Origin: Candidatus Omnitrophota bacterium
GTDB lineage: Bacteria > Omnitrophota > Gorgyraeia > Zapsychrales > JBDRMG01
Length of the DNA: 43,770 nucleotides
Assembly (NCBI GenBank): GCA_043812495.1
Contig: JBDRMG010000047.1
Coordinates: 1 to 43,770, forward strand
Direction: 5' to 3'
The position numbers and the translations under genes are program-made. Under the pieces are notes generated by a model that ran no database searches, had not been told where the DNA came from, and saw only the letters and a list, made by a program, of their open reading frames with translations. Within the stretch, counting starts at the first letter, position 1. Every line of letters begins with the position of its first letter. Of the stretch, positions 12,832-35,938 are shown piece by piece.

Positions 12832-13648
12832 AAACCCCTATCGTCCCATTAAAACCGAAGTCCTTAATGTGATCACCGAAACACCGACCATCAAGACGCT
12901 GAGATTGAAACCGGCGGAGCCCATTTCTTTCCGGACGGGACAATTCATCGAATTGACCGTTCCCGGCGCGGGCGAAGGCCCTTTTACACCGTCTTCGCGG
13001 CCGGCCGTCAAAGACGAGCTGGAAGTCACCATCATGCGCGTCGGCAAGGTCACGGAAAAGATCCATCAGCTCAAAAAAGGCGACACAGTGGGTGTGCGCG
13101 GACCCTTTGGCGCGGGGTATCCTTTGGATGAATTCAAAGGAAAAGAGATTCTGGTCGTCGGCGGCGGATGCGGTTTTGCCCCTTTACGCAGTCTCATGTA
13201 TTCGCTGTTTGATATGAGCGGCGAATTCAAGCAATTATTCTTTCGTGGAGGCTGCAAAACATCCAAGGAATTTCTTTATCGGGAAGAAATCGAAAGCTGG
13301 ACAAAAAGAAAAGACCTCAATATGAAATTGACGGTCGATCGAGCCGATGATGATAAGACATGGAAACATAATGTGGGATTGGTCACCACCATTCTCGACA
13401 AATTGGACATGGATTGCAAAAAAGGCCTCGCGATCGTATGCGGACCACCGATCATGATGAAATTTGCGACGTTTAAATTGATCGATTTAGGATTTCAGGA
13501 AAACAATATTTTTCTTTCGATGGAAAAGAACATGTCCTGCGGCATCGGCAAATGTGGACATTGCCGTATCGGTACCTATTATGCCTGCAAGGACGGCCCG
13601 GTTTTTCAATATAGCAAAATAAAGAAATTTGCGGAGATTTGGGAATGA
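12821..13648 (+). CDS. AsrB / sulfhydrogenase gamma-like FAD/NAD(P)H-binding [2Fe-2S] subunit
   Basis: GQF, RGPFG, GGGCGFAPLRS, CGPPIMM, MSCGIGKCGHC...CKDGPVF. Confidence 0.92.
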   Translation: MHGKNPYRPIKTEVLNVITETPTIKTLRLKPAEPISFRTGQFIELTVPGAGEGPFTPSSRPAVKDELEVTIMRVGKVTEKIHQLKKGDTVGVRGPFGAGYPLDEFKGKEILVVGGGCGFAPLRSLMYSLFDMSGEFKQLFFRGGCKTSKEFLYREEIESWTKRKDLNMKLTVDRADDDKTWKHNVGLVTTILDKLDMDCKKGLAIVCGPPIMMKFATFKLIDLGFQENNIFLSMEKNMSCGIGKCGHCRIGTYYACKDGPVFQYSKIKKFAEIWE

Positions 13649-13751: not shown

Positions 13752-14351
13752 ATGAGCTCAAGCGCCGAACAACTTCACGATCGCAAGCTGAATCCAACCC
13801 CCCAAAAAGGTAAAGATCAAAGGCTTTATATTGACCTTGATGTCTGCGCGAGCGGCGAATGCAAAAAATGCGTTATCGAATGCAGCTATTTCTATCACAG
13901 CCCGCCTTATAAAAGTGAAGGGACGCTGTGTGTGGAAAGATTTGACAATAACGGCATCATCTCCGTGGCGGAATTAGCCGCGTACGCGCTTGTTTGCCGA
14001 CGCTGCGAAGAACCGCATTGCGTCAATGCCTGCCCGGTGGAAGCGCTCGAACAGCAACAAGATAAAGACAAAATGCTTATTCGCCATAATATGCGCTGCA
14101 TCAGCTGTAAATCCTGTTCTCACGCGTGTCCTTACGGCACGATTTATCCCGAGAATGTTCCTTATTTGATTCATATCTGCGACTTTTGTTTGGATCGAAG
14201 AGGGCAGAAAGACGAACCGCTTTGCATCAAGAGCTGCCCTTATGGCGCGCTGAGCCTCAAGGCAGGCGACGTGGAATTGGATGGAAAAACATTTTTAGTA
14301 GGCGACAATCTCATCGTTCATTCAACCCATTGGCAACAGCAAAAAGCATGA
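13752..14351 (+). CDS. Multi-[4Fe-4S] ferredoxin-like subunit (HycB/DmsB-like)
   Basis: CRRCEEPHCVNACP, CISCKSCSHACP, CDFC...CIKSCP; atypical first Cys group; ATG start chosen after AGGGA. Confidence 0.85.
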   Translation: MSSSAEQLHDRKLNPTPQKGKDQRLYIDLDVCASGECKKCVIECSYFYHSPPYKSEGTLCVERFDNNGIISVAELAAYALVCRRCEEPHCVNACPVEALEQQQDKDKMLIRHNMRCISCKSCSHACPYGTIYPENVPYLIHICDFCLDRRGQKDEPLCIKSCPYGALSLKAGDVELDGKTFLVGDNLIVHSTHWQQQKA

Positions 14352-15271
14352 TAGAAATCGCATATCTTATTGTTTACGGATTCCTTTTAACGGCTGTGAT
14401 TGGTCTTGTGGCCAGCTGGATTGACCGAAAAGTAACGGCCAGGGTTCAGTATCGCGTGGGGCCGCCTTTTTTTCAGCCCTTTATCGATATCGTCAAGCTT
14501 CTTGGAAAAGAAATGCTGATCCCTCAGGGCGCGTCAAAAATTACTTTTATCAGCGCTCCGGTCGTGGGGTTAGCCAGCGTGATTCTGGTCTCAACGCTTT
14601 TGTGGATGAACACCCTGTATGCCCCCCTGTCGTTTTTGGGAGATTTGATTGTTGTCGTTTATTTATTGACTTTGCCGTCGATAACCATCATGATGGGCGG
14701 ATTTGCTTCGGCCAATCCCTTAGCAAGTTTGGGCGCATCAAGAGAAATGAAACTCATATTGGGCTATGAACTTCCTTTTGTATTGGCAATCTTTGTTCCC
14801 GTCATCCAGGCGGGATACTCCATCCGTATTGCCGAAATTTTGAATTATCAAGCGATGGATGGCGTCGTGGCCGGCAGCTGGTCGGGCGCGCTCGCTCTCA
14901 TTGTCGCTATCATGTGCATGCAGGCCAAGTTAGGCTTTGTTCCTTTCGATATCGCTGAAGCGGAAACAGAAATCGTCTCGGGCCCCCTCATTGAATATTC
15001 CGGTCCGGCTTTAGCGATTTATCGGCTGATGAAAAACATGCTTCTTTTTACGTTGCCGTTTTTCCTTATGATTTTGTTTATGGGCGGATTGAGATTTGAC
15101 GGCATCCATCTTGTGTATGGTATTTTGAAATATATCGGATTAGTTGCGTTGATTACGGTTATCCGAAACACCAATCCCCGCGTGCGCATCGACCAGGCTG
15201 TAAGATTTTTCTGGGGCAAGATGACACTTATGGGAATTTTGGCTGTGCTTTTAGCGATTAAAGGGTATTGA
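14348..15271 (+). CDS. NuoH/MbhM-like membrane subunit of group 4 hydrogenase
   Basis: DRKVTARVQYRVGPP, DIVKLLGKE, GASRE, PFDIAEAETEIVSGPLIEYSG, RVRIDQ; ATGA overlap sets start at 14348. Confidence 0.92.
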   Translation: MIEIAYLIVYGFLLTAVIGLVASWIDRKVTARVQYRVGPPFFQPFIDIVKLLGKEMLIPQGASKITFISAPVVGLASVILVSTLLWMNTLYAPLSFLGDLIVVVYLLTLPSITIMMGGFASANPLASLGASREMKLILGYELPFVLAIFVPVIQAGYSIRIAEILNYQAMDGVVAGSWSGALALIVAIMCMQAKLGFVPFDIAEAETEIVSGPLIEYSGPALAIYRLMKNMLLFTLPFFLMILFMGGLRFDGIHLVYGILKYIGLVALITVIRNTNPRVRIDQAVRFFWGKMTLMGILAVLLAIKGY

Positions 15272-15708
15272 TGAGCATTAAATTACAGGCTTTATTAAAA
15301 TCGCCGTGGGTCTTTCATATGTCGACGGGAAGCTGCAATAATTGCGACATTGAAGTCCTCGACTGCTTAACGCCCCGTTTTGACATTGAGCGATTTGGGA
15401 TTCTTCTTGTGGGAAGCATTAAGCACGCGGATGTTCTTCTGGTCACGGGTTCCGCGAATCGAAAATGCATTCCGCGCATCAAAAAGATTTATGAACAAAT
15501 GCCCAAGCCCTGTTTGGTGGTCGCGATCGGCGAATGTTCGCTTTCTAGGGGCATGTTTATTCAGAGTTACAATTGTCCTGTGCCTGTGGACAAAATTATT
15601 CCCGTGGATGCCTATATTCCGGGGTGTCCCCCTAAACCCGAAGCGATTATTTCAGCTGTGGTAAAATTGATCACAAAAGTCCAAGAGCAAGCAAAGGCCA
15701 AAAAATGA
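15271..15708 (+). CDS. Group 4 [NiFe]-hydrogenase small subunit (NuoB/MbhJ-like)
   Basis: GSCNNCDIE, HADVLLVTG, IGEC, YIPGCPPKP (four cluster Cys). Confidence 0.93.
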   Translation: MSIKLQALLKSPWVFHMSTGSCNNCDIEVLDCLTPRFDIERFGILLVGSIKHADVLLVTGSANRKCIPRIKKIYEQMPKPCLVVAIGECSLSRGMFIQSYNCPVPVDKIIPVDAYIPGCPPKPEAIISAVVKLITKVQEQAKAKK

Positions 15709-16178
15709 CAAAAGGCGAAATTTTACAAGATTTAGGGATACGTTTTAAGGATGATATTATTGATATTTTCGATAAATCTCCAAAAAGGGTTTATATCGAG
15801 ATCAACCCCAAGTCCATCAAAAAAATTGCCCAATATGTTTTTAAAGACTTAGAAGCGCGATTCAATATCGCCTCCTGTGTTGACGTGCGGACCCATTTTG
15901 AAATTTTATATCACTTTACCATCGAACCCATAAATCTTTTGATTTCCTTTCGCGTTAAATTAGACAGAGAAAAACCCGAAATCGATTCATTGACCTTTTT
16001 GATGAAAGGGGCGGATTGGATCGAGCGCGAAATGTGGGAAATGCTCGGTATCAACTTTATCGGCCATGCGGACCTGAAGCGTTTGCTTTTGCCCGACGAA
16101 TGGCCGCAAGGCGTGTATCCTTTGCGCCGTGATTACAAGGAATGGGATGACTCCGCCGTGAGAGATAGAGGAGTGTAA
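15705..16178 (+). CDS. NuoC/MbhK-like subunit
   Basis: ADWIEREMWEMLGINFIGH.DLKRLLLPDEW...YPLRRD. Confidence 0.92.
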   Translation: MTKGEILQDLGIRFKDDIIDIFDKSPKRVYIEINPKSIKKIAQYVFKDLEARFNIASCVDVRTHFEILYHFTIEPINLLISFRVKLDREKPEIDSLTFLMKGADWIEREMWEMLGINFIGHADLKRLLLPDEWPQGVYPLRRDYKEWDDSAVRDRGV

Positions 16179-16184
16179 AAGTGA

Positions 16185-16237
16185 TCAGCTATCAGTCGTC
16201 AGCTTTCAGAAACTGACAGCTGAAGGCTGAAAGCTGA
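16185..16237. repeat. Heptamer-periodic palindromic array
   Basis: TCAGCTA-TCAGTCG-TCAGCTT-TCAG / CTGA-CAGCTGA-AGGCTGA-AAGCTGA. Confidence 0.8.
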
Positions 16238-16247
16238 AAACTTGCTT

Positions 16248-17423
16248 ATGAGCAGAACAATAGTACCCATAGGACCGTATCACCCGCTGCAGGAAGAGCC
16301 GGAGTTTTTCGAGCTCACCGTTGAAGGCGAAAAGATCGTCGATATCAACGTTCAAATCGGCTACAACCACAGAGGCATCGAGAAGCTTTCGGAAATGAAA
16401 ACCTTCGATCAATCGACCTTTGTGATTGAGCGTATTTGCGGGATTTGCTCAACGAGCCATCCCTTTGCCTACACACAGGCCGTGGAAGATATTATCCCGA
16501 TGGATGTGCCCGAGCGCGCGAAGTTTATCCGCACGATTATCGGCGAAGGTGAACGCATCCATTCGCATCTTCTCTGGCTTGGCCTGGCCGGTCACTTTTT
16601 AGGTTACAATACGGTCTATATGTGGGCTTGGAAACTGCGTGAAGAGATTCTGGATGTCATGGAAATACTTTCCGGCAATAGAAATAATTACGGCATGTTT
16701 AAACCCGGCGGCGTCCGGCGTGACATTAAAAAAGAAGATATTCCAGTTGTTCTCAAAAAGATTGATAGCATTGTTCCGACGTTGGATATGCTTCTTAAAG
16801 CGGTCACGGATGATCCTGTTTTGCATGCCCGCACCAAAGGCGTAGGCGTTCTGACCAAAGAAGACGCCATTAGCTATTCGGCTTTGGGTCCGACAGCCAG
16901 GGCTTCGGGGATAGCCAAAGATGTGCGCAAAGACGCTCCTTATGCGGCTTATGATCGCGTGGATTGGAAAATGATCGTCACAGAAAACGGCGATGTTTTT
17001 GACAAGGTGGCTGTGCGGATTCTTGAGATGTACGAATCGATTAAAATTCTTAAATACTGTTTAACAAATCTACCAGCGGGCGAGATCGACGCGAACATCA
17101 AAGACATTCCTCCCGGCGAAGGCATCGGAGCGCATGAAGCGCCCCGCGGGGAAGTCTTTCATTATGTACGCTCGGACGGCACCAACCGTCCCGCGCGTCA
17201 TAAAGTGCGCGCGCCGACCTTTATGAATCTGCCGACTTATAAATCGACGGTTGTAGGCGAAACCATTTCGGATGCCACGATTATTTTAGCGGCCATTGAT
17301 CCCTGCTATTGCTGCACGGAACGCATGGCCGTGCGCGATACCAAGGGCAAAAAACTTTATAACGGCGAAGACTTAGTCCGGCTTTCGCAGGAAAAGACCG
17401 AAAAAATAAGGAAGAAAATTTAA
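16248..17423 (+). CDS. Group 4 [NiFe]-hydrogenase large (catalytic) subunit
   Basis: GPYHP, HRGIEK, L1 ERICGICSTSH, EAPRGE, RAPT, L2 DPCYCCTER followed by a cleavable C-terminal extension. Confidence 0.95.
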   Translation: MSRTIVPIGPYHPLQEEPEFFELTVEGEKIVDINVQIGYNHRGIEKLSEMKTFDQSTFVIERICGICSTSHPFAYTQAVEDIIPMDVPERAKFIRTIIGEGERIHSHLLWLGLAGHFLGYNTVYMWAWKLREEILDVMEILSGNRNNYGMFKPGGVRRDIKKEDIPVVLKKIDSIVPTLDMLLKAVTDDPVLHARTKGVGVLTKEDAISYSALGPTARASGIAKDVRKDAPYAAYDRVDWKMIVTENGDVFDKVAVRILEMYESIKILKYCLTNLPAGEIDANIKDIPPGEGIGAHEAPRGEVFHYVRSDGTNRPARHKVRAPTFMNLPTYKSTVVGETISDATIILAAIDPCYCCTERMAVRDTKGKKLYNGEDLVRLSQEKTEKIRKKI

Positions 17424-19075
17424 TGTTTGGCGGCGAACTGTTTAAAATCGATAATCTTTCAACTTTTATAGGGATCTTTATTGTCTTCTTCTCTGCCTTG
17501 ACCATCCTTTATTCTTCGGGTTTCATGCAAAAGAAGAAGGGTCTGCTGCGTTATTATCTATATATCGTTTTAACGACTCTTGCATCTGTCGGCGCTGTTT
17601 TTGCCAATAATCTTATTTTGCTGATAGTTTTCTGGGGATTTTTAGGACTTCTTCTTTATCTTTTAATCGGCTTTGGGGAGAAAGAAAGGACCTCTGATAC
17701 AGCTAAGAAGGCATTTATTATTATTGGAGGCACGGATGCCTTGATGCTATTAGGGTTGACTTTTGTATGGCATCTGACAAATTCATTTCTAATGAATGAA
17801 ATGAGCATAAAATTAGATTCTCGCATTGCCGTCTGGGCTTATCTGTGTCTAGCAGCTGGCGCATTTGCCAAGGCTGGGGCCATGCCGTTTCATACATGGG
17901 TTCCAGATACAGCAGAAGATGCGCCTACACCTGTTGCGGCCTTTTTACCGGCTTCTCTTGATAAACTTCTAGGAATATATTTCCTTGCAAGAATCTCACT
18001 GGATGTATTTCAGATGGACGCAAGCATGAATACATTTTTAATGGCATTGGGGAGCTTTACAATCATTGCTGCTGTTATGATGGCTCTTGTGCAGCATGAT
18101 TTAAAACGACTTTTGGGATATCATGCGGTTAGTCAAGTGGGATATATGATTTTAGGCATCGGAACAGGAAATCCGATTGGCATCGCAGGCGGTCTATTTC
18201 ATATGCTCAACAATGCCGTTTATAAATCATGCCTCTTCTTTTCCGGCGGTGCCGTGGAAAGAAAAACCGGTACAACCGATTTAGATAAGCTGGGTGGATT
18301 TGCGAAAATTATGCCGATAACATTTACAGCCTTTTTGATTGCGTCCTTGGCTATCTCGGGCATTCCACCCTTAAATGGTTTTGCCTCCAAATGGATGATT
18401 TATCAAGGCATTATTAAAGCAGGACGTACAGGTCACTCTCTTTGGATTATCTGGCTTTTGGCCGCTATGTTCGGGAGCGCCCTGACACTGGCAAGCTTTA
18501 TGAAGCTGATTCATGCCGTATTTCTCGGGCAATCGGCCAAAGAAAGAATGATCAAAGACGATCAACCGCAGGAGACGTCTTTTTCCATGTGGTTTCCGTC
18601 TGGCATCCTTGCCTTTCTTTGTGTTGTTTTCGGCGTATTCGCCTACAGAATACCTCTTCAAATGTATATATTTCCGAGTTTAAACCAGTCCGTGTATTTT
18701 GGCGGCGTATGGAATGCGAGCCTAGCGACGGTTCTCCTATTGATTGGTATCGTCATCGGTTTTATTATTTATCTTCTTGGGGCCGCGACAAAGTCACGGC
18801 AAGTAGAACCCTTTGTTGGCGGAGAAGATTTGAGCAAGCATCCGGATATGAGGCTATCGGGAACAGGATTTTACAACACGATTCAGGACATTGGTTTACT
18901 CAAAGGGATTTATGCCTTGGCCGAGAAAAAGTTTTTTGATATTTATGAGGTGGGCAGCAAAATAACATTTGGGCTCAACAAAATGCTACGGTATATTCAT
19001 AACGGCGTGCTGCCCACGTATTTATCCTGGTGCCTGTTGGGGATGTTGATCCTCTTTTGGGTTTTGTTTACATAA
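17423..19075 (+). CDS. NuoL/MrpA-like ion-translocating subunit
   Basis: KAGAMPFHTWVPD..EDAPTP, KRLLGYHAVSQVGY, FHMLNNAVYKSCLF, LGG, SGIPPLNGFASKW. Confidence 0.9.
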   Translation: MFGGELFKIDNLSTFIGIFIVFFSALTILYSSGFMQKKKGLLRYYLYIVLTTLASVGAVFANNLILLIVFWGFLGLLLYLLIGFGEKERTSDTAKKAFIIIGGTDALMLLGLTFVWHLTNSFLMNEMSIKLDSRIAVWAYLCLAAGAFAKAGAMPFHTWVPDTAEDAPTPVAAFLPASLDKLLGIYFLARISLDVFQMDASMNTFLMALGSFTIIAAVMMALVQHDLKRLLGYHAVSQVGYMILGIGTGNPIGIAGGLFHMLNNAVYKSCLFFSGGAVERKTGTTDLDKLGGFAKIMPITFTAFLIASLAISGIPPLNGFASKWMIYQGIIKAGRTGHSLWIIWLLAAMFGSALTLASFMKLIHAVFLGQSAKERMIKDDQPQETSFSMWFPSGILAFLCVVFGVFAYRIPLQMYIFPSLNQSVYFGGVWNASLATVLLLIGIVIGFIIYLLGAATKSRQVEPFVGGEDLSKHPDMRLSGTGFYNTIQDIGLLKGIYALAEKKFFDIYEVGSKITFGLNKMLRYIHNGVLPTYLSWCLLGMLILFWVLFT

Positions 19076-19076
19076 T

Positions 19077-19637
19077 ATGATTGAACTTTATATCCTTCTT
19101 ATTTTTATGATTGTCGGCGCGGCCATTGCGATCGAAGTCAAAGATTTGCTGTCTTCGGTTGTAGCCGTGGGCGCCGTTGGCTTGGCGCTGTCCATTACAT
19201 TTCTCATCTTGAAAGCGCCTGATGTGGCGATTACGCAATTGGTGGTTGAGTTACTGGCACTCATCATTCTGATTCGGGCGACACTCAAAAAGGACCTTCC
19301 TTTTTCTACGTCGGGTCGATGGTTTGTCAATACCTTGATCACTATTGTTTTTATCTTGGGCTTTTTGGCTGTGGCCATGATTTCTTTGAAGGACTTGCCT
19401 TCCTTTGGTTACCCGACGATGAGAGTGGCCGAAACCTATTTGAAAGAAGGCCTCATGCGCACCGGCGCGACCAACATCGTAGCTTCGGTCATTCTGGACT
19501 ACCGGGCCTTTGATACCTTAGGCGAAGTAACGGTCCTCTTTACGGCCGTGATTGGTGTTTTGGCGATTGTGCGAAGAACCGGACGAAAAAAAGAAGGACA
19601 AATCATAGAGGACGAGGATGAGTCCAGCCCTTCCTAA
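19077..19637 (+). CDS. MbhD/MbhE-like (MrpA C-terminal, DUF4040) membrane subunit
   Basis: LKAPDVAITQ and NIVASVILDYRAFDTLGE motifs. Confidence 0.88.
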   Translation: MIELYILLIFMIVGAAIAIEVKDLLSSVVAVGAVGLALSITFLILKAPDVAITQLVVELLALIILIRATLKKDLPFSTSGRWFVNTLITIVFILGFLAVAMISLKDLPSFGYPTMRVAETYLKEGLMRTGATNIVASVILDYRAFDTLGEVTVLFTAVIGVLAIVRRTGRKKEGQIIEDEDESSPS

Positions 19638-19721
19638 GAAGGGCAGGATGCGCGAATCTAAAGACAAGGAAGAAAACGCGTGAGATGGACAAAAATCAAA
19701 GATACCTAAGGGAAGGGCTGG
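19624..19721. mobile_element. 98-bp MITE-like insertion with 11-bp terminal inverted repeats and 6-bp target duplication
   Basis: CCAGCCCTTCC (19624-34) / GGAAGGGCTGG (19711-21), flanked by ATGAGT at 19618-23 and 19722-27. Confidence 0.8.
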
Positions 19722-20174
19722 ATGAGTAGAGAACACGAAAAAGGAATGTCTCTGATCGTCAAGACCATTACGCGCTTGACCGTAGGCCTTATCCTTCTTT
19801 ACGGAATTTATATTTTATCGCACGGCCATGTGTCCCCGGGTGGCGGTTTTGCCGGTGGGGTCATCATTGCCCTGTCCTTTGTTCACTTGATGCTGGCGTA
19901 CGGAAAAGAGACGGCCTTGGCCAAGCTCTCTAAGGGCGCCACGTCATTTTTTGAGAGCATGGGCGCGATTTTATTTCTGGCCATTGCCCTTTTAGGGTTT
20001 ACGGGAGGATACTTCTTCTTGAATTTTCTCGGCAAGGGTGAGCCCTTTAAGCTCTTTAGCGCCGGGATTATTCCGCTTGCGAATATCGCGATCAGCTTAA
20101 AAGTCGGGGCCGGGCTTTTTGCCATATTCGTGGCTTTAGTTTTGCTGAAATTTGATTCGGAGGATAAAGGATGA
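19722..20174 (+). CDS. mnhB: Mrp/Mnh antiporter subunit B (MbhF-like)
   Basis: HGHVSPGGGFAGG motif. Confidence 0.9.
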   Translation: MSREHEKGMSLIVKTITRLTVGLILLYGIYILSHGHVSPGGGFAGGVIIALSFVHLMLAYGKETALAKLSKGATSFFESMGAILFLAIALLGFTGGYFFLNFLGKGEPFKLFSAGIIPLANIAISLKVGAGLFAIFVALVLLKFDSEDKG

Positions 20175-20286
20175 TGCATTCGATTGCACTTATCTCGTGC
20201 CGAGCAACAAAAATAATTAAGCACTCGATACGAGGGAGCATCATGGTGAGCGACAAATTTTATATTTTAAATGGAGAAGCCGAACC

Positions 20287-20625
20287 ATGATTCTTTATCT
20301 ATTGTGCTTGATTCTTTTCTGCGAAGGCCTCTATTGCATCCTGCGCAAGCGCAATATTATCAAAATTATTGTCGGCGTGATCATCGCCGAATATGCCGTG
20401 AATCTGTTCTTCATTTTGATTGCGTACCGCATGGGGGGCCGTTCGCCGATTTATTCTCCGGATGCGACGATCGTCAACATGGTGGATGCCCTTCCGCAGG
20501 CCGTTGTTCTGACCTCTATTGTCATTGGCTTGGCCTCGACTGCTCTTTTGGTCGCCTTGGCTATGCGTATTTATGATAAGTATGGGACATTCAATATTAC
20601 CAAGATCAGGGAATTAAGAGGATGA
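20287..20625 (+). CDS. mnhC: Mrp/Mnh antiporter subunit C (MbhG-like)
   Basis: NIIKIIVG, VDALPQAVVLTSIVIG. Confidence 0.9.
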   Translation: MILYLLCLILFCEGLYCILRKRNIIKIIVGVIIAEYAVNLFFILIAYRMGGRSPIYSPDATIVNMVDALPQAVVLTSIVIGLASTALLVALAMRIYDKYGTFNITKIRELRG

Positions 20626-22127
20626 TCCAAGAAATCAATATTATTCCGTTTTTTGTGGTTATCCCCTTAGCCGCTTCCTTTCTTGTATCCATTGTCAGGG
20701 AAAAAAGCAAGTGGATGCCGGATTTTCTCGGGATTACGGCTACGGCGGCACTATTGGTGGCTTCGCTATTTTCCGTTAAAATCGTGAATGTATTAGGAAC
20801 ACTTGTCTACAGTGTCGGCGCGTGGAAACCGCCTTTTGGCATCGCTTTGGTCTTAGACGGACTTACTTCCTTTATGTTGGTAACGGTGAATCTAGTCGCT
20901 TTCGCGATCGCCCTGTACTCGATTCAATACATGACGCAGTATACATCCAAGTGGAAATTTTACACTCTCTTTCTTATGATGCTGGCCGGCATGAACGGCG
21001 TCATTGTCACGGGTGATATTTTCAATCTCTTTGTTTTCTTGGAAATCGCTTCGGTCGCAAGTTACGCGCTCGTTGCCTTTGGAACCGAAAAACATGAGCT
21101 GGAAGCCGCTTTTAAATATGCCGTGATGAGCACGGTCGGGTCTTTGTTTATTCTTTTAGGGATTGTCTTGCTGTACAGCTTTACATCGACGCTGAACATG
21201 GCGGATATGGCCGGTGTGTTGGCGCAAAAGGCCGGAAGCAATATTGTCTTGATGGTGAGTGCTTTATTTATTATGGGCTTTGGTCTTAAGGCAGCGCTTG
21301 TGCCTTTTCATGCATGGCTTCCGGATGCGCATCCTTCAGCCCCTGCGCCTATCTCAGCAATGCTTTCAGGCGTTTTAATAAAATCACTCGGCGTGTATAC
21401 CTTGTGCAGAATATTCTTCAATGTCATTGGCATAAGTCCGGCCGTATCTTCTATCCTGTTACTTTTAGGAACGCTCTCTATGGTCGTTGGTGGATTGTTA
21501 GCCATCGGACAATGGGATTTCAAGCGACTTTTGGCCTACTCGTCGATCAGCCAAATTGGCTACATTATTTTTGCGATGGGTTTGGGTACACCACTTGGTA
21601 TTATGGGTGCGCTCTTTCATCTTTTTAATCATTCTGTATTTAAATCATTACTCTTTTTGAATTCAGGCGCTGTTGAATATGCAACAGGAACTCGCGATTT
21701 AAAGAAGATGGGAGGTCTCGCCGCTAAGATGCCTGTGACAGGTACAACGTCTCTCATCGGATCTATGTCCATTGCAGGGATCCCTCCATTTAGCGGTTTT
21801 TGGAGTAAACTGCTTATTATTATTGCAGCTGTTCAAGCGGGCCGCTATGGATGCGCCTTCTGGGCCATTTTGGTCAGCATATTAACGCTTGCGATGTACA
21901 TGAAGATTATGAAATATGCCTTTTATGGTCGCTGTAAAGAAAAAGAGGGCCAAATAAAAGAAGTGCCGATCTTTATGAGATTGTCCATGTTGGTTTTAGC
22001 ATGCATCTGTTTGATGGGAGGAATTTTACTTATTCCTGGTATCAGCGATGTGTTTCTTCAAAGGGCTTCTGATGTCGTTACAGGAGGCGTTAACTACGCA
22101 CTGATCGTTTTTAAGAATTTACAATAA
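20622..22127 (+). CDS. mnhD: Mrp/Mnh antiporter subunit D (MbhH-like)
   Basis: GDIFNLFVFLEI, EAAFKY, KAALVPFHAWLPDAHPSAP, KRLLAYSSISQIG, GIPPFSGFWSK. Confidence 0.92.
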   Translation: MIQEINIIPFFVVIPLAASFLVSIVREKSKWMPDFLGITATAALLVASLFSVKIVNVLGTLVYSVGAWKPPFGIALVLDGLTSFMLVTVNLVAFAIALYSIQYMTQYTSKWKFYTLFLMMLAGMNGVIVTGDIFNLFVFLEIASVASYALVAFGTEKHELEAAFKYAVMSTVGSLFILLGIVLLYSFTSTLNMADMAGVLAQKAGSNIVLMVSALFIMGFGLKAALVPFHAWLPDAHPSAPAPISAMLSGVLIKSLGVYTLCRIFFNVIGISPAVSSILLLLGTLSMVVGGLLAIGQWDFKRLLAYSSISQIGYIIFAMGLGTPLGIMGALFHLFNHSVFKSLLFLNSGAVEYATGTRDLKKMGGLAAKMPVTGTTSLIGSMSIAGIPPFSGFWSKLLIIIAAVQAGRYGCAFWAILVSILTLAMYMKIMKYAFYGRCKEKEGQIKEVPIFMRLSMLVLACICLMGGILLIPGISDVFLQRASDVVTGGVNYALIVFKNLQ

Positions 22128-22128
22128 G

Positions 22129-22626
22129 ATGAAAAAGAAAATCACTCTTTTTATTATTGCATTTTTTACTTGGTGTCTTTTAAGCTGGGTGCCGGATTGG
22201 CAGCATTTAAGCGTGGGTGTTTTTGTCGCTCTTTTTGTCTCTTTGATAACAGGTGATTTGTTTATTCAACGGCCTGATCTTTTGAAACACCCCAAGCGAT
22301 ATTTCTATTTCTTCTTTGTTTATATGCCTGTCTTTACGTGGGAAGTCTTAAAAGCCAATATCGACGTCGCTTATCGCGTTTTGCATCCGCAGCTTCCCAT
22401 TCATCCGGGAATCGTTAAGGTGAAAACCTCTTTGCAGTCGGATACAGCATTGACATTTTTAGCGAATTCTATCACCTTGACCCCCGGAACCATGAGCGTT
22501 GATATTGACCGGGATAATGGTATTTTGTACATACACTGGATTGATGTCAAGGCCAAGGATACGGAAACAGCAACTAAAATCATTGTTGAGCGCTTTGAGA
22601 AAATATTAAAAATGATTTTTGATTAG
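22129..22626 (+). CDS. mnhE: Mrp/Mnh antiporter subunit E (MbhA-like)
   Basis: ANIDVA, PGIV, LANSITLTPGT, LYIHWI. Confidence 0.93.
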   Translation: MKKKITLFIIAFFTWCLLSWVPDWQHLSVGVFVALFVSLITGDLFIQRPDLLKHPKRYFYFFFVYMPVFTWEVLKANIDVAYRVLHPQLPIHPGIVKVKTSLQSDTALTFLANSITLTPGTMSVDIDRDNGILYIHWIDVKAKDTETATKIIVERFEKILKMIFD

Positions 22627-22638
22627 GCTAGGTGATTT

Positions 22639-23007
22639 ATGAAACACTTGAAATGGTTGATAGGGGCTGTGCTTTTGATCGGTGTTGTGGTCGTAATTAT
22701 CACAAGACCCTTTCCTTTTCTTTTTTATCCAGGTCTTCCTTATCTTGCATTCTTAGGAAGAGCCCTGTACATTCTGATCCTTGCTTGCATCATGTGTCTT
22801 TATCGTATAGGAAAAGGGCCGACAGGAGCAGATAGAATTGTTGCCGTAGATATCCTTGGCATTATGATTGTAGGGTTATGTGCTATTTTGACGATTTCAA
22901 CCGGCCGATCTTGGTACATTGATATTGGCATTGCATGGGCCCTTCAGAGTTTTATTAGCACGCTGGCTTTGTCCAAATATTTAGAGGGGAAAGGTTTTGA
23001 TGAATAA
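22639..23007 (+). CDS. mnhF: Mrp/Mnh antiporter subunit F (MbhB-like)
   Basis: GPTGADRIVAVD, YIDI, SFISTLALSKYL. Confidence 0.9.
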   Translation: MKHLKWLIGAVLLIGVVVVIITRPFPFLFYPGLPYLAFLGRALYILILACIMCLYRIGKGPTGADRIVAVDILGIMIVGLCAILTISTGRSWYIDIGIAWALQSFISTLALSKYLEGKGFDE

Positions 23008-23335
23008 TATCATCGGATTAGTTTTTATTAGCTTTGGCTTGGCCTTTGATCTTTTTGGGTGCCTAGGGCTTGTCCGTCTTCCGGATGTCTATAATCGCCT
23101 GCAGGCTGCCACCAAATGCGTGACCATGGGCACGTGCAGCATTCTTTTCGGAACATTCTTGATGGTTGGATTTACCGCCGCTGGCCTCAAGTCGCTTTTG
23201 TGTATGATTTTTCTTATATTAACAGCGCCTGTGGCGGCGCATGCTATCGCTAGGGGCGCGCACAGAGCCGGTGTCAAACTTTGGAGCGAAAGCGTTGTCG
23301 ACCAATACGCACAAGATAAAGAAGGCGAAGCATAG
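23000..23335 (+). CDS. mnhG: Mrp/Mnh antiporter subunit G (MbhC-like)
   Basis: GLVRLPDVYNRLQAATK, LTAPVAAHAIAR. Confidence 0.93.
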   Translation: MNNIIGLVFISFGLAFDLFGCLGLVRLPDVYNRLQAATKCVTMGTCSILFGTFLMVGFTAAGLKSLLCMIFLILTAPVAAHAIARGAHRAGVKLWSESVVDQYAQDKEGEA

Positions 23336-23336
23336 G

Positions 23337-23456
23337 AAATTCCAAATTTAAAATGACAAATGTCAAATAAATTCCCAGTGACCAATGCCCAACTGAAAAA
23401 AATATTGGAAATTTGAAATTTGACATTTATTTGAAATTTTTTATTGGACATTTGAC
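23337..23456. repeat. Heptamer-periodic inverted array
   Basis: AAATTCC/AAATTTA/AAATGAC/AAATGTC units mirrored by GAAATTT/GAAATTT/GACATTT units. Confidence 0.7.
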
Positions 23457-23459
23457 GTT

Positions 23460-24068
23460 ATGAAATTACCTAAAGTAAGAGAACTCATCGAAGCCATCAA
23501 AGCCCTCATTAAAGGGCCTTACACGTCGAAATTTCCCAAAGAACCCCATGTGGCCCATCCGAATTTCCGCGGTCAACCCAAATACAACGAACAAAAATGT
23601 GTGGGATGTCTCGCCTGCGAAGAGGTCTGTCCGGTGTACGCCATCGCCCATAAAGATACCGTTGAAAACGGCGTAGCCAAAAGAACCGTGATTCACTACT
23701 CTGATACCTGCATTTTCTGTAGCCAGTGCGAAGCGGCTTGCATTGCCGACCATGAAGGAATCAAACTGTCGAACGATTGGGACCTGGCCTTTTTTGACCG
23801 GTCAAAAAGTTTTGAAACCATTGATAAAGAGCTGCAGCTCTGTGAGGTTTGCGGTTGCGTGATCGCCTGCAAAGATCATCTGAAATGGATAGCCGAAAAG
23901 ATCGGCGAATTGACGTATTCTAACCCCACCCTCTATCTTTCCCGCCTCAAAAGCCTTGGCATCACAGATGAAAATATCGTTACGGTCCTCAAAGACCAGG
24001 GTCGATCCGATCGCGTCAAGATATTATGCGCCCGTTGTCGACGAGAAACAACCCTGACAACGAAATAG
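23460..24068 (+). CDS. NuoI/MbhN-like 2x[4Fe-4S] subunit with extra C-terminal Cys pairs
   Basis: FRGQP, CVGCLACEEVCP, CIFCSQCEAAC, then CEVC...CARC. Confidence 0.9.
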   Translation: MKLPKVRELIEAIKALIKGPYTSKFPKEPHVAHPNFRGQPKYNEQKCVGCLACEEVCPVYAIAHKDTVENGVAKRTVIHYSDTCIFCSQCEAACIADHEGIKLSNDWDLAFFDRSKSFETIDKELQLCEVCGCVIACKDHLKWIAEKIGELTYSNPTLYLSRLKSLGITDENIVTVLKDQGRSDRVKILCARCRRETTLTTK

Positions 24069-24083
24069 AAACTCCCTAAAGAA

Positions 24084-24560
24084 ATGGATAAAAACTTAAA
24101 GGACATCTGGAAAGGCCGCGTGGTCATGGTCGGCATCGGAAATCCTTTGCGCGGCGATGATGCCTTTGGGCCGGAACTCATCGCGCGCTTAAAAGGGAAG
24201 ATTTCTGCGGCATGCATCGATGCGGGGAGCGCACCTGAAAGCTACACAGGGAAGATCATCAAGGAAAATCCCGACACGATTATCTTAGCCGATGTTGCGC
24301 ACTTGGATTTGCCTCCGGGCGACTATCAGATTCTCCAAAAAGAGGAAATCCTCAAAAGCGGACTCACGACCCATGATTTGTCGCCGCGAATGTTTGTTGA
24401 GTATCTTGAAAGTCAAACAAAGGCGAAAATCTGCATGCTTGGCGTTCAACCAAAAACAGTTTCTATGGGAGAAGAGATGTCGGGGGAAATCAAAGATTTC
24501 TTAAATAAAATGACAAAAATGATACAGGAGATAGACGATGCACGAAACACACTTAATTGA
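24084..24560 (+). CDS. hycI: Hydrogenase maturation endopeptidase (HycI-type)
   Basis: GIGNPLRGDDAFG, DAGSAPE, TTHDL, LGVQP. Confidence 0.9.
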   Translation: MDKNLKDIWKGRVVMVGIGNPLRGDDAFGPELIARLKGKISAACIDAGSAPESYTGKIIKENPDTIILADVAHLDLPPGDYQILQKEEILKSGLTTHDLSPRMFVEYLESQTKAKICMLGVQPKTVSMGEEMSGEIKDFLNKMTKMIQEIDDARNTLN

Positions 24561-24780
24561 GCCCATCATAAAGGGAATATCACAACACGCAGAAAAAGAG
24601 AATGCCCTTAAGGTGACAAAAGTTAAATTGAGAGTCGGCCAGTTGATAGGGACAACTGAAGACTCTTTTAAAGAGACATTTGCTTTATTGGCCAAAGGGA
24701 CCAAATGCGAAGGCGCAGAGGTGGAAATTACTTTTTTCCCAGGCTCGACGGTCAAAGTGATTTCATTTGATGTTGACTGA
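24538..24780 (+). CDS. hypA: Short HypA nickel metallochaperone lacking the zinc-finger domain
   Basis: MHE N-terminus, V..V.LRVGQL, F.LLAKGT.CEGA.VEI; no CxxC...CPxC. Confidence 0.85.
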   Translation: MHETHLIEPIIKGISQHAEKENALKVTKVKLRVGQLIGTTEDSFKETFALLAKGTKCEGAEVEITFFPGSTVKVISFDVD

Positions 24781-24797
24781 AATATTTCTATTAAATT

Positions 24798-24905
24798 AAA
24801 CGCAGATACGCGCAGATCAAACGCAGATGATCGCGGATTAAAAATTTATTAGATCATACAATCTGCGTAAATCTGCGTGCAATTTGCGTTAATCCGCGTT
24901 TAAAG
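24798..24905. repeat. CGCAGAT/ATCTGCG palindromic array; 24820-24905 is the inverted copy of 10553-10638
   Basis: Three CGCAGAT units then ATCTGCG-like units; 83/86 identity to the other copy. Confidence 0.9.
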
Positions 24906-24927: not shown

Positions 24928-26229
24928 ATGTGCTACGCCATTCCCGGAAAAGTCAAAGAGATCAAAGGCAATTTCGCCATTGTGGATTATTTCGGCGAAG
25001 AGAAAAAAGCCCACAATGAGATGCGCGATCTTGTTGTCGGGGACTACGTTTACGCTCAAGGCGGGTTTGTGATTCGCAAAATTTCGCAAAAAGAAGCCCA
25101 AGAAATACTTTCCGCCTGGAAAGACATGTTTTTCGCGCTCCAGGAGGTGGATGTCCGGCTCTCAAAGCTTGATCAAAAAGAAAGAAAAGTTGATAAAAAA
25201 GTCAGCCGAATTTTAGATCGCGCTCTCGAAGGCCTTGTGCCTAAAAAAGAGGACCTTTTAACTTTGATGAACTGTGATGATCGCCCAAGCCTTGAGCTGC
25301 TTTTTCAGACAGCCAATTTCCTACGGCAGAAATACCACAAAAATTCCTGCTGTGTTCACGGCATTCTCGAAATTTCCAATTATTGCAAACAGAATTGTTG
25401 CTATTGCGGCATTTCCGTCCACAATAAAGTTCTCAAACGTTACCGCATGACGCATGATCAGATTGTCGCAAGCGCTATTGAGGCCATTGAGGTCCACGGC
25501 TTCAAAGCCCTTGTCCTTCAAAGCGGGGAGGATCCGGGTTATTCCGTCGAGGAAATGGCCGAAACAATCCGCGAAATCAAGCAAAAAGCCCCCTGCCTGA
25601 TTTTTATCAGCTTTGGCGAAGTGGGCCGGGATGGTTTGAAGAAACTTTATGAAGCCGGAGCGCGTGGCCTCCTTTTGCGTTTTGAAACATCAAATCCAAA
25701 GCTTTACCAAACCCTTCATCCCGGCCGATCACTTGAAACGCGCTTAGAAGATATCCGCGCAGCTTTTGACATGGGTTACATTATTATTACAGGCGGCCTG
25801 ATTGGCTTGCCGGAACAAACCAACGAAGACATTGTTGATGGTATTCTTTTGGCCAGGAATCTTCATACAGAAATGTACAGCTTTGGACCGTTTTTGCCGC
25901 ATCCCGAGACGCCCTTAGCGGACAAAAAACCGATCGAAGAAACAACCATGTTAAAAGTATTAGCCTGCGCTCGCCTCGTTGACCCCAAAGATTCAAGAGT
26001 CCTGATTACAACGGCTTTTGAGACATTGAGTATGGATGCGCGAAAAAAAGGGTTGCTTGCAGGGGGCAGCTCTGTGATGCTGAATGTGACTCCCGTCGCT
26101 TATCGCGAACAGTATGACATTTATCCCAACCGCATGTATAAGCAAACAGAAATTCAGAACCAAATCAAAGAGACCATCAGGCTTTTAGAATCCCTGGGCC
26201 GTGCCCCCACAGATTTAGGTGCCCGCTAA
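24928..26229 (+). CDS. hydE: HypC domain fused to HydE-like radical SAM enzyme
   Basis: Residues 1-~66 MCYAIPGKV...AIVDYFG...VGDYVYAQGGFVIRKI...EA match HypC; remainder has EISNYCKQNCCYCG (CX3CX2C), RYRM, VLQSGED, LLRFET, GLPEQT, GPFLPHPETPL, TTA, VMLNVTP..YR..YDIY as in HydE; one uninterrupted ORF. Confidence 0.85.
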   Translation: MCYAIPGKVKEIKGNFAIVDYFGEEKKAHNEMRDLVVGDYVYAQGGFVIRKISQKEAQEILSAWKDMFFALQEVDVRLSKLDQKERKVDKKVSRILDRALEGLVPKKEDLLTLMNCDDRPSLELLFQTANFLRQKYHKNSCCVHGILEISNYCKQNCCYCGISVHNKVLKRYRMTHDQIVASAIEAIEVHGFKALVLQSGEDPGYSVEEMAETIREIKQKAPCLIFISFGEVGRDGLKKLYEAGARGLLLRFETSNPKLYQTLHPGRSLETRLEDIRAAFDMGYIIITGGLIGLPEQTNEDIVDGILLARNLHTEMYSFGPFLPHPETPLADKKPIEETTMLKVLACARLVDPKDSRVLITTAFETLSMDARKKGLLAGGSSVMLNVTPVAYREQYDIYPNRMYKQTEIQNQIKETIRLLESLGRAPTDLGAR

Positions 26230-29323: not shown

Positions 29324-29956
29324 ATGAAAAAAGTCTCCAAAAAAACCATTGACCGGGCCCTTTTGTACATGCGGATTCTCGAGGGACTCATCAAAGAGAA
29401 ACGCAACCTTATCAGCTCCGGACAGCTTGCGGATATAGCGCAGACAAGCGATGTCCAGATCCGCAAGGATATTTCCCATTTCGGTAAAGTGGGCACCCCG
29501 CGCCTGGGTTACAACACCAAGGAGCTCAAAAAGATCCTTGAAGACTTCATTCTGCAGGAGAACGTGGTGCGCGTGGTTCTCTTTGGCGTCGGGAACTTAG
29601 GAACCGCCATTATCAAATATCCCGGCTTTCATAAAGGCAAGGTCAAAATGATCGCGGCCTTTGAGAAAGACGCGCAGAAAATCGGGAAGAAAATCAATAA
29701 TTTGACGATTTACCCAATCGAGCGGGCCCCCGAGGTGATCCGCAAGACCAAGGCGCATATCGGCATCATTGCCGTGCCCAAGGAATACGCCCAAGAGGTG
29801 GCTGATCTCATAGTGCTTTCGGGCTTGCGCAGCATTATTAATTTTGCGCCGGAATCGATTACAGTTCCTAAAAATGTTTTGGTCAAGGATATCGACTTGA
29901 CCATTGAATTCTTATCTCTCTTTTGTAATACACAGAGGGTTAAAAATGACAGTTGA
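29324..29956 (+). CDS. rex: Redox-sensing transcriptional repressor Rex
   Basis: ISSGQLA...QIRKDISHFG..GTPRLGY winged helix; GVGNLG Rossmann motif; IIAVP..AQEVAD, NFAP. Confidence 0.95.
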   Translation: MKKVSKKTIDRALLYMRILEGLIKEKRNLISSGQLADIAQTSDVQIRKDISHFGKVGTPRLGYNTKELKKILEDFILQENVVRVVLFGVGNLGTAIIKYPGFHKGKVKMIAAFEKDAQKIGKKINNLTIYPIERAPEVIRKTKAHIGIIAVPKEYAQEVADLIVLSGLRSIINFAPESITVPKNVLVKDIDLTIEFLSLFCNTQRVKNDS

Positions 29957-31442
29957 AGCATTAAGAAAAGCACCGTGGATTCAGGAGCGCATCAAGCCCG
30001 AAGAAATTACAAAATATCTGAAGGATGGGCAGGATTTTATCTCGGATCAGCGTATCCTGGAAACTCTCAAAGACAATAGCCGGCCGGATCCTCAAAAAGT
30101 CAAAGACATTTTAGCTAAATCTTTAGACATTCAAACCCTTCAGCTCGACGAGGCCGCTTGTCTTTTGAATGTCGCGGATCCTTTGCTGCTTGATGCAATG
30201 AAGCAAACAGCCCTGGCAATCAAGAAAAAAGTCTACGACAACAGGATCGTGACATTTGCACCGCTTTATTTGGGAAATTTTTGCGTCAACAACTGTCTTT
30301 ATTGTGGATTCAAAAAAGATAACACAGATGCCAAGCGTAAGGTGCTGAGCCAAGACGAAATTAAGGAAGAAATCAAAATGCTCGCCGGAAGAATCGGTCA
30401 TAAAAGACTGATTGTGGTTTACGGTGAACATCCCCGTAATGATGTCGATTATATCATCAAAAGTATTCGAACGATTTATGGTGTTGAAATCAAGACGAAA
30501 AACGGCACCGGAAATATCCGCCGGGTCAATGTCAATGCTCCGCCGTTTTGCGTCGAAGACCTTAAAAAATTACACGAAGTCGGCATCGGCACGTATCAGG
30601 TTTTCCAAGAAACCTATCATCATGACACCTACGCAAAAGTCCATCCGCAAGATACGATCAAAGGCCATTACCAGTGGCGTTTATATTGCATGCATCGGGC
30701 GTTTGAGGCGGGTATCGATGATGTCGGCATCGGCGCTCTATTTGGACTATATGATTGGAAGTTTGAAGTCATGGGACTTCTTTGTCATGCCCGCGAACTG
30801 GAAAATACATTCGGCATTGGTCCGCATACGGTGTCTTTTCCCCGGCTTGAACCGGCTGCCCATGCACCATTAACGGAAAACTCACGGTATCGCGTTTCGG
30901 ATGACGATTTCAAGAAACTCATTTTAGTTTTGCGCTTGTCCATTCCCTATACGGGCATGATTATCACGGCCAGGGAAAACGCCGAAATGCGACGGGAAGC
31001 TATTGAAATGGGTGTAACGCAGACGGATGCTTCGCCTAAAATCGGTATCGGATCCTACGCAAAAGGCCAAAGCGGTCAGGACAAAGATAAGCAACAGTTC
31101 ATACTCGGAGATACGCGCAGTCTTGATGAAGTGGTTCGAGAATACGCGAACATGGGTTACATCACATCTTTCTGCACCGCCGGATATCGATGCGGACGCA
31201 CGGGAAAATGCATCATGGATCTTTTGCGAAGCGGCCAAGAAGGTAAATTCTGCAAACTCAATGCCGTCTTGACATTCCGTGAATGGCTCAATGATTTTGC
31301 AAGTGATACAACAAAAGAAGTCGCCGAGCCTGTAATTCAAAAAGAAATCCAAGAAATCAAACTTAAGATGCCGAAAATCTTTCCCAAATTTGTTGCTACC
31401 TACGAGCGAATCAAAAACGGCGCTCGGGATCTCTACTTCTAA
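29946..31442 (+). CDS. hydG: [FeFe]-hydrogenase maturase HydG (tyrosine lyase making CO/CN)
   Basis: RIVTFAPLYLGNFCVNNCLYCGF, GHKRL, GNIRRVNVN, GIGTYQVFQETYH, GIDDVGIGALFGLYDW, GPHTVSFPR; C-terminal CX5CX19C auxiliary-cluster motif; overlaps rex stop. Confidence 0.93.
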   Translation: MTVEALRKAPWIQERIKPEEITKYLKDGQDFISDQRILETLKDNSRPDPQKVKDILAKSLDIQTLQLDEAACLLNVADPLLLDAMKQTALAIKKKVYDNRIVTFAPLYLGNFCVNNCLYCGFKKDNTDAKRKVLSQDEIKEEIKMLAGRIGHKRLIVVYGEHPRNDVDYIIKSIRTIYGVEIKTKNGTGNIRRVNVNAPPFCVEDLKKLHEVGIGTYQVFQETYHHDTYAKVHPQDTIKGHYQWRLYCMHRAFEAGIDDVGIGALFGLYDWKFEVMGLLCHARELENTFGIGPHTVSFPRLEPAAHAPLTENSRYRVSDDDFKKLILVLRLSIPYTGMIITARENAEMRREAIEMGVTQTDASPKIGIGSYAKGQSGQDKDKQQFILGDTRSLDEVVREYANMGYITSFCTAGYRCGRTGKCIMDLLRSGQEGKFCKLNAVLTFREWLNDFASDTTKEVAEPVIQKEIQEIKLKMPKIFPKFVATYERIKNGARDLYF

Positions 31443-35845: not shown

Positions 35846-35938
35846 AAAAACACAGATGATCACAGATGAAAAAACACAGATGAGCACAGATGTTTATCTG
35901 TGCCCATCTGTATCTTTTAATCTGCACTAATCTGCGTT
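35827..35938. repeat. CACAGAT/ATCTGTG inverted array with an internal 24-bp tandem duplication, overlapping the otsB stop
   Basis: ACAGATGATCACAGATGAAAAAAC at 35828-51 and 35852-75, then ATCTG units. Confidence 0.85.

Follow-up and report, generated by a model that had tools for sequence, protein, structure and literature searches.

Maturation of [NiFe] hydrogenases is taught as a process that always needs HypC, HypD, HypE and HypF, in which cyanide (CN) comes from carbamoyl phosphate and the anaerobic source of carbon monoxide (CO) is unexplained. HypE and HypF are, to our knowledge, the only known cyanide makers. Here we describe a gene on a 43,770-nucleotide stretch of DNA from a Candidatus Omnitrophota bacterium (contig JBDRMG010000047.1 of assembly GCA_043812495.1; the whole stretch is called the window below) that encodes a HypC domain joined to a radical S-adenosylmethionine (SAM) barrel resembling HydE, an enzyme of the HydG/HydE/HydF system for [FeFe] hydrogenases. 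The nearest described counterpart is a HydE-HypC fusion, there called unusual, that a Legionellales symbiont encodes in a [NiFe]-hydrogenase operon (bioRxiv 10.64898/2026.04.11.717937). The main text of that preprint, as distinct from its supplements, gives the fusion one sentence, as part of a 'full maturation machinery' and with no mechanism, and contains no occurrence of HydG, HypD, HypE or HypF. Our full-text literature search found no description of a pathway composed of HydG and a HypC-HydE-like protein, the preprint sentence being the only trace. From the comparison of genes and genomes reported here, we consider it probable that, in place of HypCDEF, it is HydG and the fusion that make the Fe-CO-CN unit of [NiFe] hydrogenases.

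A sequence-only reading of the window had proposed that one open reading frame (ORF) of 433 amino acids (aa) unites a HypC-like domain, a helical linker and a HydE-like barrel, and the frame itself, Pfam, NCBIfam and an AlphaFold2 model all agree with this description. The frame (24928-26229, + strand) runs unbroken from an ATG start, opposite a stop-rich strand. At the N-terminus, the match to HupF_HypC (PF01455, residues 1-64) reaches 60.3 bits against a cut-off of 28.5, the HypC subfamily model TIGR00074 is passed as well (52.0 against 48), and residues 1-71 match HypC of T. kodakarensis among PDB sequences (2Z1C, 48.5 bits). Further along, Pfam finds Radical_SAM (PF04055) at residues 148-304 and BATS (PF06968) at 323-424. 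The top NCBIfam model is HydE (TIGR03956) with 239.1 bits, slightly below its cut-off of 254.6, followed at a distance by PylB (149.8, cut-off 348), BioB (110.9, cut-off 225) and HmdB (77.8, cut-off 321). The same ranking is seen among PDB sequences, where residues 106-428 match HydE of T. maritima (3CIX, 7O1O) with 228 bits (E 1.6e-66), PylB with 107 bits and BioB with 50-57 bits. The AlphaFold2 model, built from 93 family members, has a mean predicted local distance difference test (pLDDT) score of 92.7 and a predicted template modelling (pTM) score of 0.92; by DSSP it consists of a HypC beta-barrel, linker helices at 54-79 and 90-100, and then the radical SAM barrel. Foldseek superposes it on T. 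maritima HydE with a template modelling (TM) score of 0.90-0.96 and a root-mean-square deviation of 1.5-1.8 A, compared with TM scores of 0.86 for PylB and 0.81-0.84 for BioB.

To see which maturation proteins accompany the fusion, we searched each family in the same set of 151 evenly drawn Omnitrophota genomes. HypC is present in 52 of them, always as a single copy: 36 genomes carry a standalone gene (frames of 66-184 aa), 15 genomes from nine families carry a fused one (372-465 aa), and one carries a fragment at a contig end. HypD occurs in 36/151 genomes, namely 35 of the 36 with standalone HypC and the genome with the fragment, and the single standalone-HypC genome without it is 72% complete. 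None of the 15 fusion genomes has HypD, and none has HypE (37/151) or HypF (35/151) either. HydG accompanies the fusion, being over its cut-off in 70/151 genomes and in 14 of the 15 with the fusion, the fifteenth copy being cut by a contig end. The maturation endopeptidase HycI is found in all 15, and its 47 genomes in the sample comprise these 15, 30 with standalone HypC and two with neither. An [FeFe] hydrogenase is encoded in 62/151 genomes and HydF in 61/151, and the same five of the 15 fusion genomes have both. Eleven sample genomes contain HydG and no [FeFe] hydrogenase; ten of these carry the fusion, and the other (G150) has HypCDE. Canonical-pathway Omnitrophota, as a separate observation, often carry a short HypF of about 355-420 aa that covers HypF model positions 380-740 and adjoins hypC (for example G065:C24:14715-15812 and G069:C1:109818-110897), full-length HypF being present in only nine genomes.

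The genome from which the window comes (1.94 Mb, 66 contigs, 90.5% complete) fits this pattern. The fusion is its sole HypC and its sole HydE-like gene; searches of the genome found no HypD, HypB or [FeFe] hydrogenase, and no HypF, HypE or HydF over cut-off. We added 16 fusion genomes from several labelled phyla, of which one (G164) is identical to a sample genome (G135), so that 15 are new and the total is 30 distinct genomes. HypD is absent from all 16, HydG is present in 15 and an [FeFe] hydrogenase in nine. In five of these genomes, including two closed chromosomes, searches for HypF and HydF found nothing and no HypE reached its cut-off; an [FeFe] hydrogenase is likewise missing from both chromosomes. 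Over the 30 distinct genomes, HypD is thus found in none and 16 (ten from the sample and six of the new ones) are without an [FeFe] hydrogenase. Fusion and HypCDEF exclude each other in an either/or pattern that extends over nine Omnitrophota families, two closed genomes and several further labelled phyla.

This pattern bears on two readings in which the fusion takes no part in a separate [NiFe] route. In the first, HypD, HypE and HypF are missing through genome incompleteness, or the hydrogenases are no more than relics, and the fusion plays no particular part. Most of the genomes are indeed metagenome-assembled genomes (MAGs), and the source genome is 90.5% complete in 66 contigs, but HypD is present in 0/30 fusion genomes, closed chromosomes included, against 35/36 standalone-HypC genomes of similar quality. 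The ligand motifs of the large subunit are moreover intact, and the fusions are conserved at 38-71% identity with invariant catalytic residues; we regard this reading as extremely improbable and close to refuted. In the second, the fusion is a HydE isoform for [FeFe] maturation with HypC as an extra iron carrier, as might be suggested by HydE being the best family match, by the [FeFe] hydrogenases of 14/30 fusion genomes and by the database name HydE given to many members. Against it, the other 16/30 genomes, with both closed chromosomes among them, lack an [FeFe] hydrogenase, HydF is absent from 10/15 sample fusion genomes (the source genome included) and from the five further genomes, those genomes that do have [FeFe] enzymes retain a separate canonical HydE, and the fusion gene sits in [NiFe] operons, which makes such an isoform very unlikely. 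Because the closed genomes lack HydA, HydF and HypDEF, both readings are poorly compatible with them. The genomes with both hydrogenase types add a further point: three of the five in the sample (G053, G088, G092) have canonical HydE and the fusion, yet only one HydG over cut-off. Since such genomes keep both HydE types and a single HydG, the HydE-type enzymes do not look interchangeable, and HydG looks shared.

The fusion is widespread. In protein clusters, 119 of the 120 best matches (58-71% identity, 421-454 aa) have both Pfam domains, HypC and radical SAM, as do 115 of the 120 best matches to a member of a second subclade (P0141), and a scan with one genome per species confirmed 447 stretches of DNA that encode the fusion. 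Taxon labels and locus counts rest on the best 80 of these 447. The 80 loci are mainly labelled Omnitrophota, and the other labels include Saganbacteria/Margulisiibacteriota/WOR-1, Spirochaetota/Brevinematales, Atribacterota (with Candidatus Caldatribacterium californiense among the MAGs), Elusimicrobia and Auribacterota; among the labels in the second subclade are Deltaproteobacteria, Thermodesulfobacteriota and Planctomycetes, including Candidatus Kuenenia. Two records are closed chromosomes (CP070797.1 and CP070684.1). Many members carry the database name HydE. Public sequencing data gave four DNA contig sets with low shares (0.05-0.10) and no RNA set; the DNA contigs match the gene of the window at 100% only in pieces of 151-314 nucleotides, none of which spans the junction between the two halves (25100-25350); hundreds of independent assemblies, closed chromosomes among them, nevertheless rule out the worry that the fusion is an assembly artefact of a single genome.

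The gene neighbourhood ties the fusion to [NiFe] hydrogenases. Fourteen loci of the phylum sample and 15 of other records show it behind either a group-4 cluster of the Mbh/Mrp type or a group-3b-like cluster of four genes (Fer4_22, FAD/NAD, small subunit, and a large subunit of 440-465 aa), and the usual gene order is structural genes, HycI, an 80-aa HypA, the fusion and HydG. Up to 6 kb either side of the 80 loci, a [NiFe] large subunit or HycI is encoded in 69, HycI in 60, the short HypA in 47 and HydG in 37; in those 47 loci, the HypA homologue has the same length and lies directly upstream of the fusion. One group-3b-like locus (L024 4194-6026, genome G125) has its large subunit and HycI as a single 610-aa ORF, either a real fusion of substrate and protease or a sequencing error, where a related genome (G127, locus L021) has two overlapping genes.

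In some genomes, HydG is part of the same polypeptide. Triple fusions of HypC, the HydE-like barrel and HydG were found in two types, P0123 (906 aa) and P0130 (881 aa), whose HydG parts score 607 and 631 bits, respectively, and a search with P0130 returned at least nine clusters, 880-917 aa long, in which all three Pfam families are present. On the closed chromosome CP070797.1, the triple fusion directly follows Mbh/Mrp genes, HycI and a short HypA. The two types sit apart from each other within the fusion clade, so HydG was probably joined on more than one occasion. This direct linkage suggests that the barrel is handed its substrate by HydG. A complex prediction for the fusion and HydG of the window, made without control runs, scored 0.00 and gave no verdict either way.

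We noticed that the barrel combines retained and rebuilt parts of HydE. Residues were mapped by aligning the fusion to T. maritima HydE (PDB chain index minus 10 gives the numbering of the papers), and counts refer to 31 fusion sequences and 18 canonical Omnitrophota HydEs. In HydE, M224 and M291 are thioether ligands through which HS-Fe(CO)2CN leaves the substrate pocket and reaches the S3 site, where a conserved threonine and two arginines form the lining (PMC10114646); the two methionines have been assigned the role of an iron relay, and R54, T134, R155 and T269 are in contact with the CN ligands of the dimerising units at this exit site (PMC10114646, PMC11826987). M224, M291, E161 and L157 are kept in 31/31 fusions, as they are in the canonical enzymes; the methionines correspond to M316 and M384 of our protein, and T362, the equivalent of T269, is kept in 28/31. 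The exit site differs. R54, an arginine in 18/18 canonical HydEs, is His in 31/31 fusions; T134, Thr in 18/18, is never Thr in the 31 (Phe, Cys, Leu, Ile or Tyr instead); R155, Arg in 18/18, is Gly or Ala in all 31; and H52, which is not Cys in canonical HydEs, is Cys in 31/31. In the fusion of the window, the R54, T134 and R155 positions read His, Phe and Gly, so that the Arg/Thr/Arg exit site is replaced by an invariant Cys-x-His (C142, H144). Since M224, M291, E161 and L157 are kept and R54, T134 and R155 are lost, the parts that would handle the HydG product appear to be preserved and the place of di-iron assembly rebuilt: judged by its residues, the barrel is a remodelled HydE.

A tree of 90 rows rooted on HydG (quick IQ-TREE) places all 22 fusion rows in one clade with a Shimodaira-Hasegawa-like approximate likelihood ratio test (SH-aLRT) value of 99, together with three unfused representatives and with the 18 canonical HydEs outside. 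The Cys-His-x-Gly/Ala signature is found in 25/25 rows of this clade and in 0/65 of the others, and the Arg-Thr-Arg triad in 18/18 canonical HydEs, in 36/45 unlabelled representatives and in a HydE-HydG fusion (P0144). Scores against the HydE model are likewise lower for fusion barrels (189-267 bits) than for canonical Omnitrophota HydEs (288-391). Profile score, PDB match, fold and tree therefore concur in grouping the radical SAM domain with HydE rather than with BioB or PylB. The earlier label 'HydE-like' holds in that HydE is the nearest relative; it does not extend to an ordinary HydE, given the separate clade and the remodelled product exit. In the same tree, three HydE-like enzymes (P0174, P0229, P0271) carry an N-terminal Se_S_carrier domain (PF11823) in place of HypC, forming a clade (SH-aLRT 100) in which R155 is changed to Asn; this is a second fusion of a small carrier to this barrel.

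The unusual exit site and the Se_S_carrier fusions, which show the family to be functionally plastic, would also suit a different role, in which the radical SAM domain acts as a modifying enzyme on the large subunit or another protein, HypC serves as its docking module, and HydG delivers CO and CN in some other way. However, the HydE residues M224, M291, E161 and L157 retained throughout and T269 retained in nearly all fusions speak against this role, as does the hand-over suggested by the triple fusions, and we hold a protein-modifying role to be decidedly unlikely.

The HypC half has a change of its own. Met1, Cys2 and Pro6 are invariant in 93/93 aligned fusion proteins, as are the radical SAM cysteines C153, C157 and C160, bearing out the earlier statement that Cys2 is kept. 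The same reading had noted that the conserved HypC histidine, which we take to be His51 in E. coli numbering, is a glutamine, and this too holds: the residue is Gln44, in the stretch V41-Y-A-Q44-G-G. The corresponding strand reads V/I/L-V/I/L-H-V/A-G in 19/19 standalone Omnitrophota HypCs, and 0/31 fusion proteins have His at this position, which is Gln in 26/31 and Thr, Tyr or Ala in 5/31. The suggestion that a HypC without this histidine is loaded by a partner other than HypD fits the absence of HypD from the 30 distinct fusion genomes.

Taken as a whole, these observations make the fusion the likely central component of a route to the [NiFe] iron centre that is free of HypD, HypE and HypF. 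HydG would cleave tyrosine and, as in the [FeFe] system, build complex-B, an Fe(CO)2(CN) unit bound to cysteine. The HydE-like barrel would bind complex-B, and a 5'-deoxyadenosyl radical would attack the cysteine sulfur, freeing an Fe-CO-CN fragment. Where an ordinary HydE would pair two such fragments at the S3 exit, the Cys-x-His of the fusion may hold a single iron unit, which could then pass to Cys2 of the tethered HypC domain, presumably with no need for the histidine used with HypD, and from there into the apo large subunit. The 80-aa HypA would bring nickel and HycI would trim the C-terminal tail. At some point after HydG, the (CO)2(CN) unit would have to be converted to the (CN)2(CO) of the [NiFe] site.

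Several points weigh against this proposal. The HydG product has two CO and one CN, the [NiFe] site one CO and two CN, and we found no feature that explains the difference. HydGs encoded next to fusions fall into two sequence types, both of which also occur in purely [FeFe] genomes, so any difference in CO and CN ligands must arise after HydG. With no HypB in the source genome, nickel delivery is incompletely accounted for. The 14/30 fusion genomes with [FeFe] hydrogenases allow the fusion a role in maturing those enzymes, and 11/80 loci have no hydrogenase gene within 6 kb (L143 and L144, for example, with full flanks). Most genomes are incomplete MAGs, genomes that are related are not independent samples, and only two chromosomes are closed. 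Binding of iron, CO or CN by the fusion is, finally, a role predicted from genes.

The stoichiometry admits two variants. In one, only some of the ligands, for example CO, would come from the fusion and HydG, and the cyanides or the scaffold from unrecognised proteins. HydG chemistry yields more CO than a [NiFe] site needs (PMC10114646), and the lack of any feature accounting for CN2/CO points the same way. No other conserved neighbour was seen in the loci, however, and the genes that separate the fusion from HydG in the window are unconserved in other loci. HydG, moreover, makes CN as well, and HypE and HypF, the cyanide makers named at the outset, are missing along with HypD; we consider such partial supply unlikely. 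In the other variant, all diatomic [NiFe] ligands would come from tyrosine, with HydG's own Fe(CO)2(CN) delivered as it is, and these group-3b and group-4 enzymes would have a non-canonical ligand set. Room for this arises because the HydG types do not differ between the two systems and the analysis found no component for ligand exchange, though we think it improbable.

The features of the window that accompany the proposed route are collected in Table 1.

Table 1 Features of the fusion gene and its surroundings in the window
Feature	Coordinates	Strand	Evidence
Fer4_22 and FAD/NAD-binding pair (like group-3b beta/gamma subunits)	11776..13648	+	Pfam; upstream of group-4 cluster
Group-4 Mbh/Mrp-type membrane-bound [NiFe] hydrogenase cluster, 13 genes	14126..24068	+	Pfam: NuoH, NuoB, NuoC, NuoD, Mrp, Mbh, Fer4
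[NiFe] large subunit	16242..17423	+	PF00346, PF00374; RICGICSTSH and DPCYCCTER
HycI-type [NiFe] hydrogenase maturation endopeptidase	24084..24560	+	PF01750, TIGR00072
80-aa HypA, nickel-binding N-domain only, starts MHE, no zinc finger	24538..24780	+	PF01155 positions 1-69 of 112
HypC::HydE-like radical SAM fusion gene (433 aa)	24928..26229	+	Single ORF, PF01455, PF04055 and PF06968; HydE top NCBIfam model
HypC domain, residues 1-64 (Met-Cys2, Pro6, Gln44 at HypC His position)	24928..25119	+	Pfam, alignment, PDB 2z1c
Helical linker, residues 65-105	25120..25242	+	DSSP on model; no family match (Pfam, NCBIfam)
HydE-like radical SAM barrel, residues 106-433	25243..26226	+	CX3CX2C = C153/C157/C160; invariant C142, H144
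Rex redox-sensing repressor, directly upstream of HydG	29324..29956	+	NF003995, 204.9 bits
HydG (tyrosine lyase making CO and CN), likely true start ATG 29946	29904..31442	+	TIGR03955, 466.4 bits against cut-off 312

The large subunit (16242-17423) has both metal-binding cysteine pairs intact and ends in a tail of about 30 aa that HycI would remove. The Fer4_22 and FAD/NAD pair also precedes the hydrogenase cluster in two other loci (L025, L028), and a third (L022) shows the FAD/NAD gene only, at the end of the locus; the pair's position in front of a group-4 cluster points, tentatively, to coupling of a membrane-bound hydrogenase with NAD(P)H. We considered whether the short HypA was a frameshifted or truncated gene and rejected this: no continuation was found in another frame, and the 80-aa form is kept beside the fusion elsewhere.

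HydG (29904-31442) lies 3.7 kb past the fusion and has its CX3CX2C motif at residue 127. Its C-terminal cluster motif (residues 422-455) reads FCTAGYRCGRTGKC...C, in which the second cysteine of CX2CX22C is Gly and two extra cysteines follow. The FCTAGYRCGRTGKC...C variant is common to many Omnitrophota HydGs (see loci L157-L170) and, because genomes with [FeFe] hydrogenases only have it too, is lineage-specific and not tied to the fusion. A specialised HydG beside fusions was rejected as a candidate, both forms of the C-terminal motif occurring in [FeFe]-only, dual and fusion-only genomes. Rex is also encoded between the fusion and HydG in two other loci (L020, L022).

Between the fusion and Rex/HydG lie four genes, for a 96-aa protein, an LsrF/DeoC-like aldolase, a zinc-dependent alcohol dehydrogenase and a 205-aa protein. 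A conserved role for them was also rejected: homologues of the 96-aa protein were found in two loci only and of the 205-aa protein in none, and the others are unconserved beside the fusion, so we treat these genes as an unrelated insertion. The 96-aa protein (26315-26605) is a predicted membrane protein that starts with MCY and has no family match in Pfam or NCBIfam; its homologues are in loci L085 and L026, in the latter adjoining a Fer4_22 gene that belongs to a group-3b-like cluster.

The spacer between hypA and the fusion is 147 bp long, compared with only 2-10 bp in other loci, and contains an imperfect palindrome (24796-24903) with 44-nucleotide arms of AAACGCAGAT-like units. The AAACGCAGAT motif occurs six times in the window against 0.11 expected, further copies lying at 10560-10598 and 35919-35936, and it is matched by high-depth contigs from elsewhere, from groundwater metagenomes. 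By its sequence, it looks like a dispersed palindromic repeat element of Omnitrophota.

If the proposed route is real, [NiFe] hydrogenases would have a second way of obtaining their iron centre, with tyrosine as the source of both CO and CN, and the question of the CO source would be answered for these organisms. The route would also mean that two hydrogenase maturation systems long held to be independent have been recombined in nature. The reading of hydrogenase potential from genomes would change, as many anaerobes now scored as unable to mature [NiFe] enzymes would be able to do so, among them Omnitrophota, MAGs labelled Saganbacteria/Margulisiibacteriota, Atribacterota and Spirochaetota, and anammox Planctomycetes. 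A maturation set of two or three genes would become available for heterologous expression, and the remodelled exit site would offer nature's own test of whether HydE, as proposed, dimerises iron units at that site.

Compared with known systems, the fusion belongs to neither of its parent families. With the HypC/HybG/HupF chaperones it shares Met-Cys2, Pro6, profile scores above both cut-offs and, before the linker, the size of a standalone HypC, and it adjoins [NiFe] structural genes and their endopeptidase. Unlike them, its HypC is never a separate protein, has no His at the conserved position and is found in genomes without the HypD, HypE and HypF partners, which sets it outside the HypC family. 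With HydE (TIGR03956), the barrel shares the full (beta-alpha)8 fold, the CX3CX2C motif, the equivalents of M224, M291, T269, E161 and L157, and HydG as partner. It is nonetheless not a HydE: it scores below the family cut-off, forms its own clade, has replaced R54, T134 and R155 and so has no exit triad, has gained Cys-x-His and an N-terminal HypC, is found with neither HydF nor HydA in more than half of the genomes, and is placed in [NiFe] operons. With the HydG/HydE/HydF system for [FeFe] maturation, the proposed route shares a genuine HydG and a HydE-type enzyme, which here are often adjacent or fused, but the source genome has neither HydF nor an [FeFe] hydrogenase, and the presumed recipient here is a [NiFe] large subunit that needs one iron, not a di-iron unit. 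The Legionellales operon (bioRxiv 10.64898/2026.04.11.717937), as far as its main text describes it, has the same architecture, with a maturation protease and HypA, and differs in having HypB, which the source genome does not. The fusion is built from known parts, and its novelty, if the mechanism holds, is at the level of the pathway: it would be closest to HydE on the substrate side and to HypC on the delivery side.

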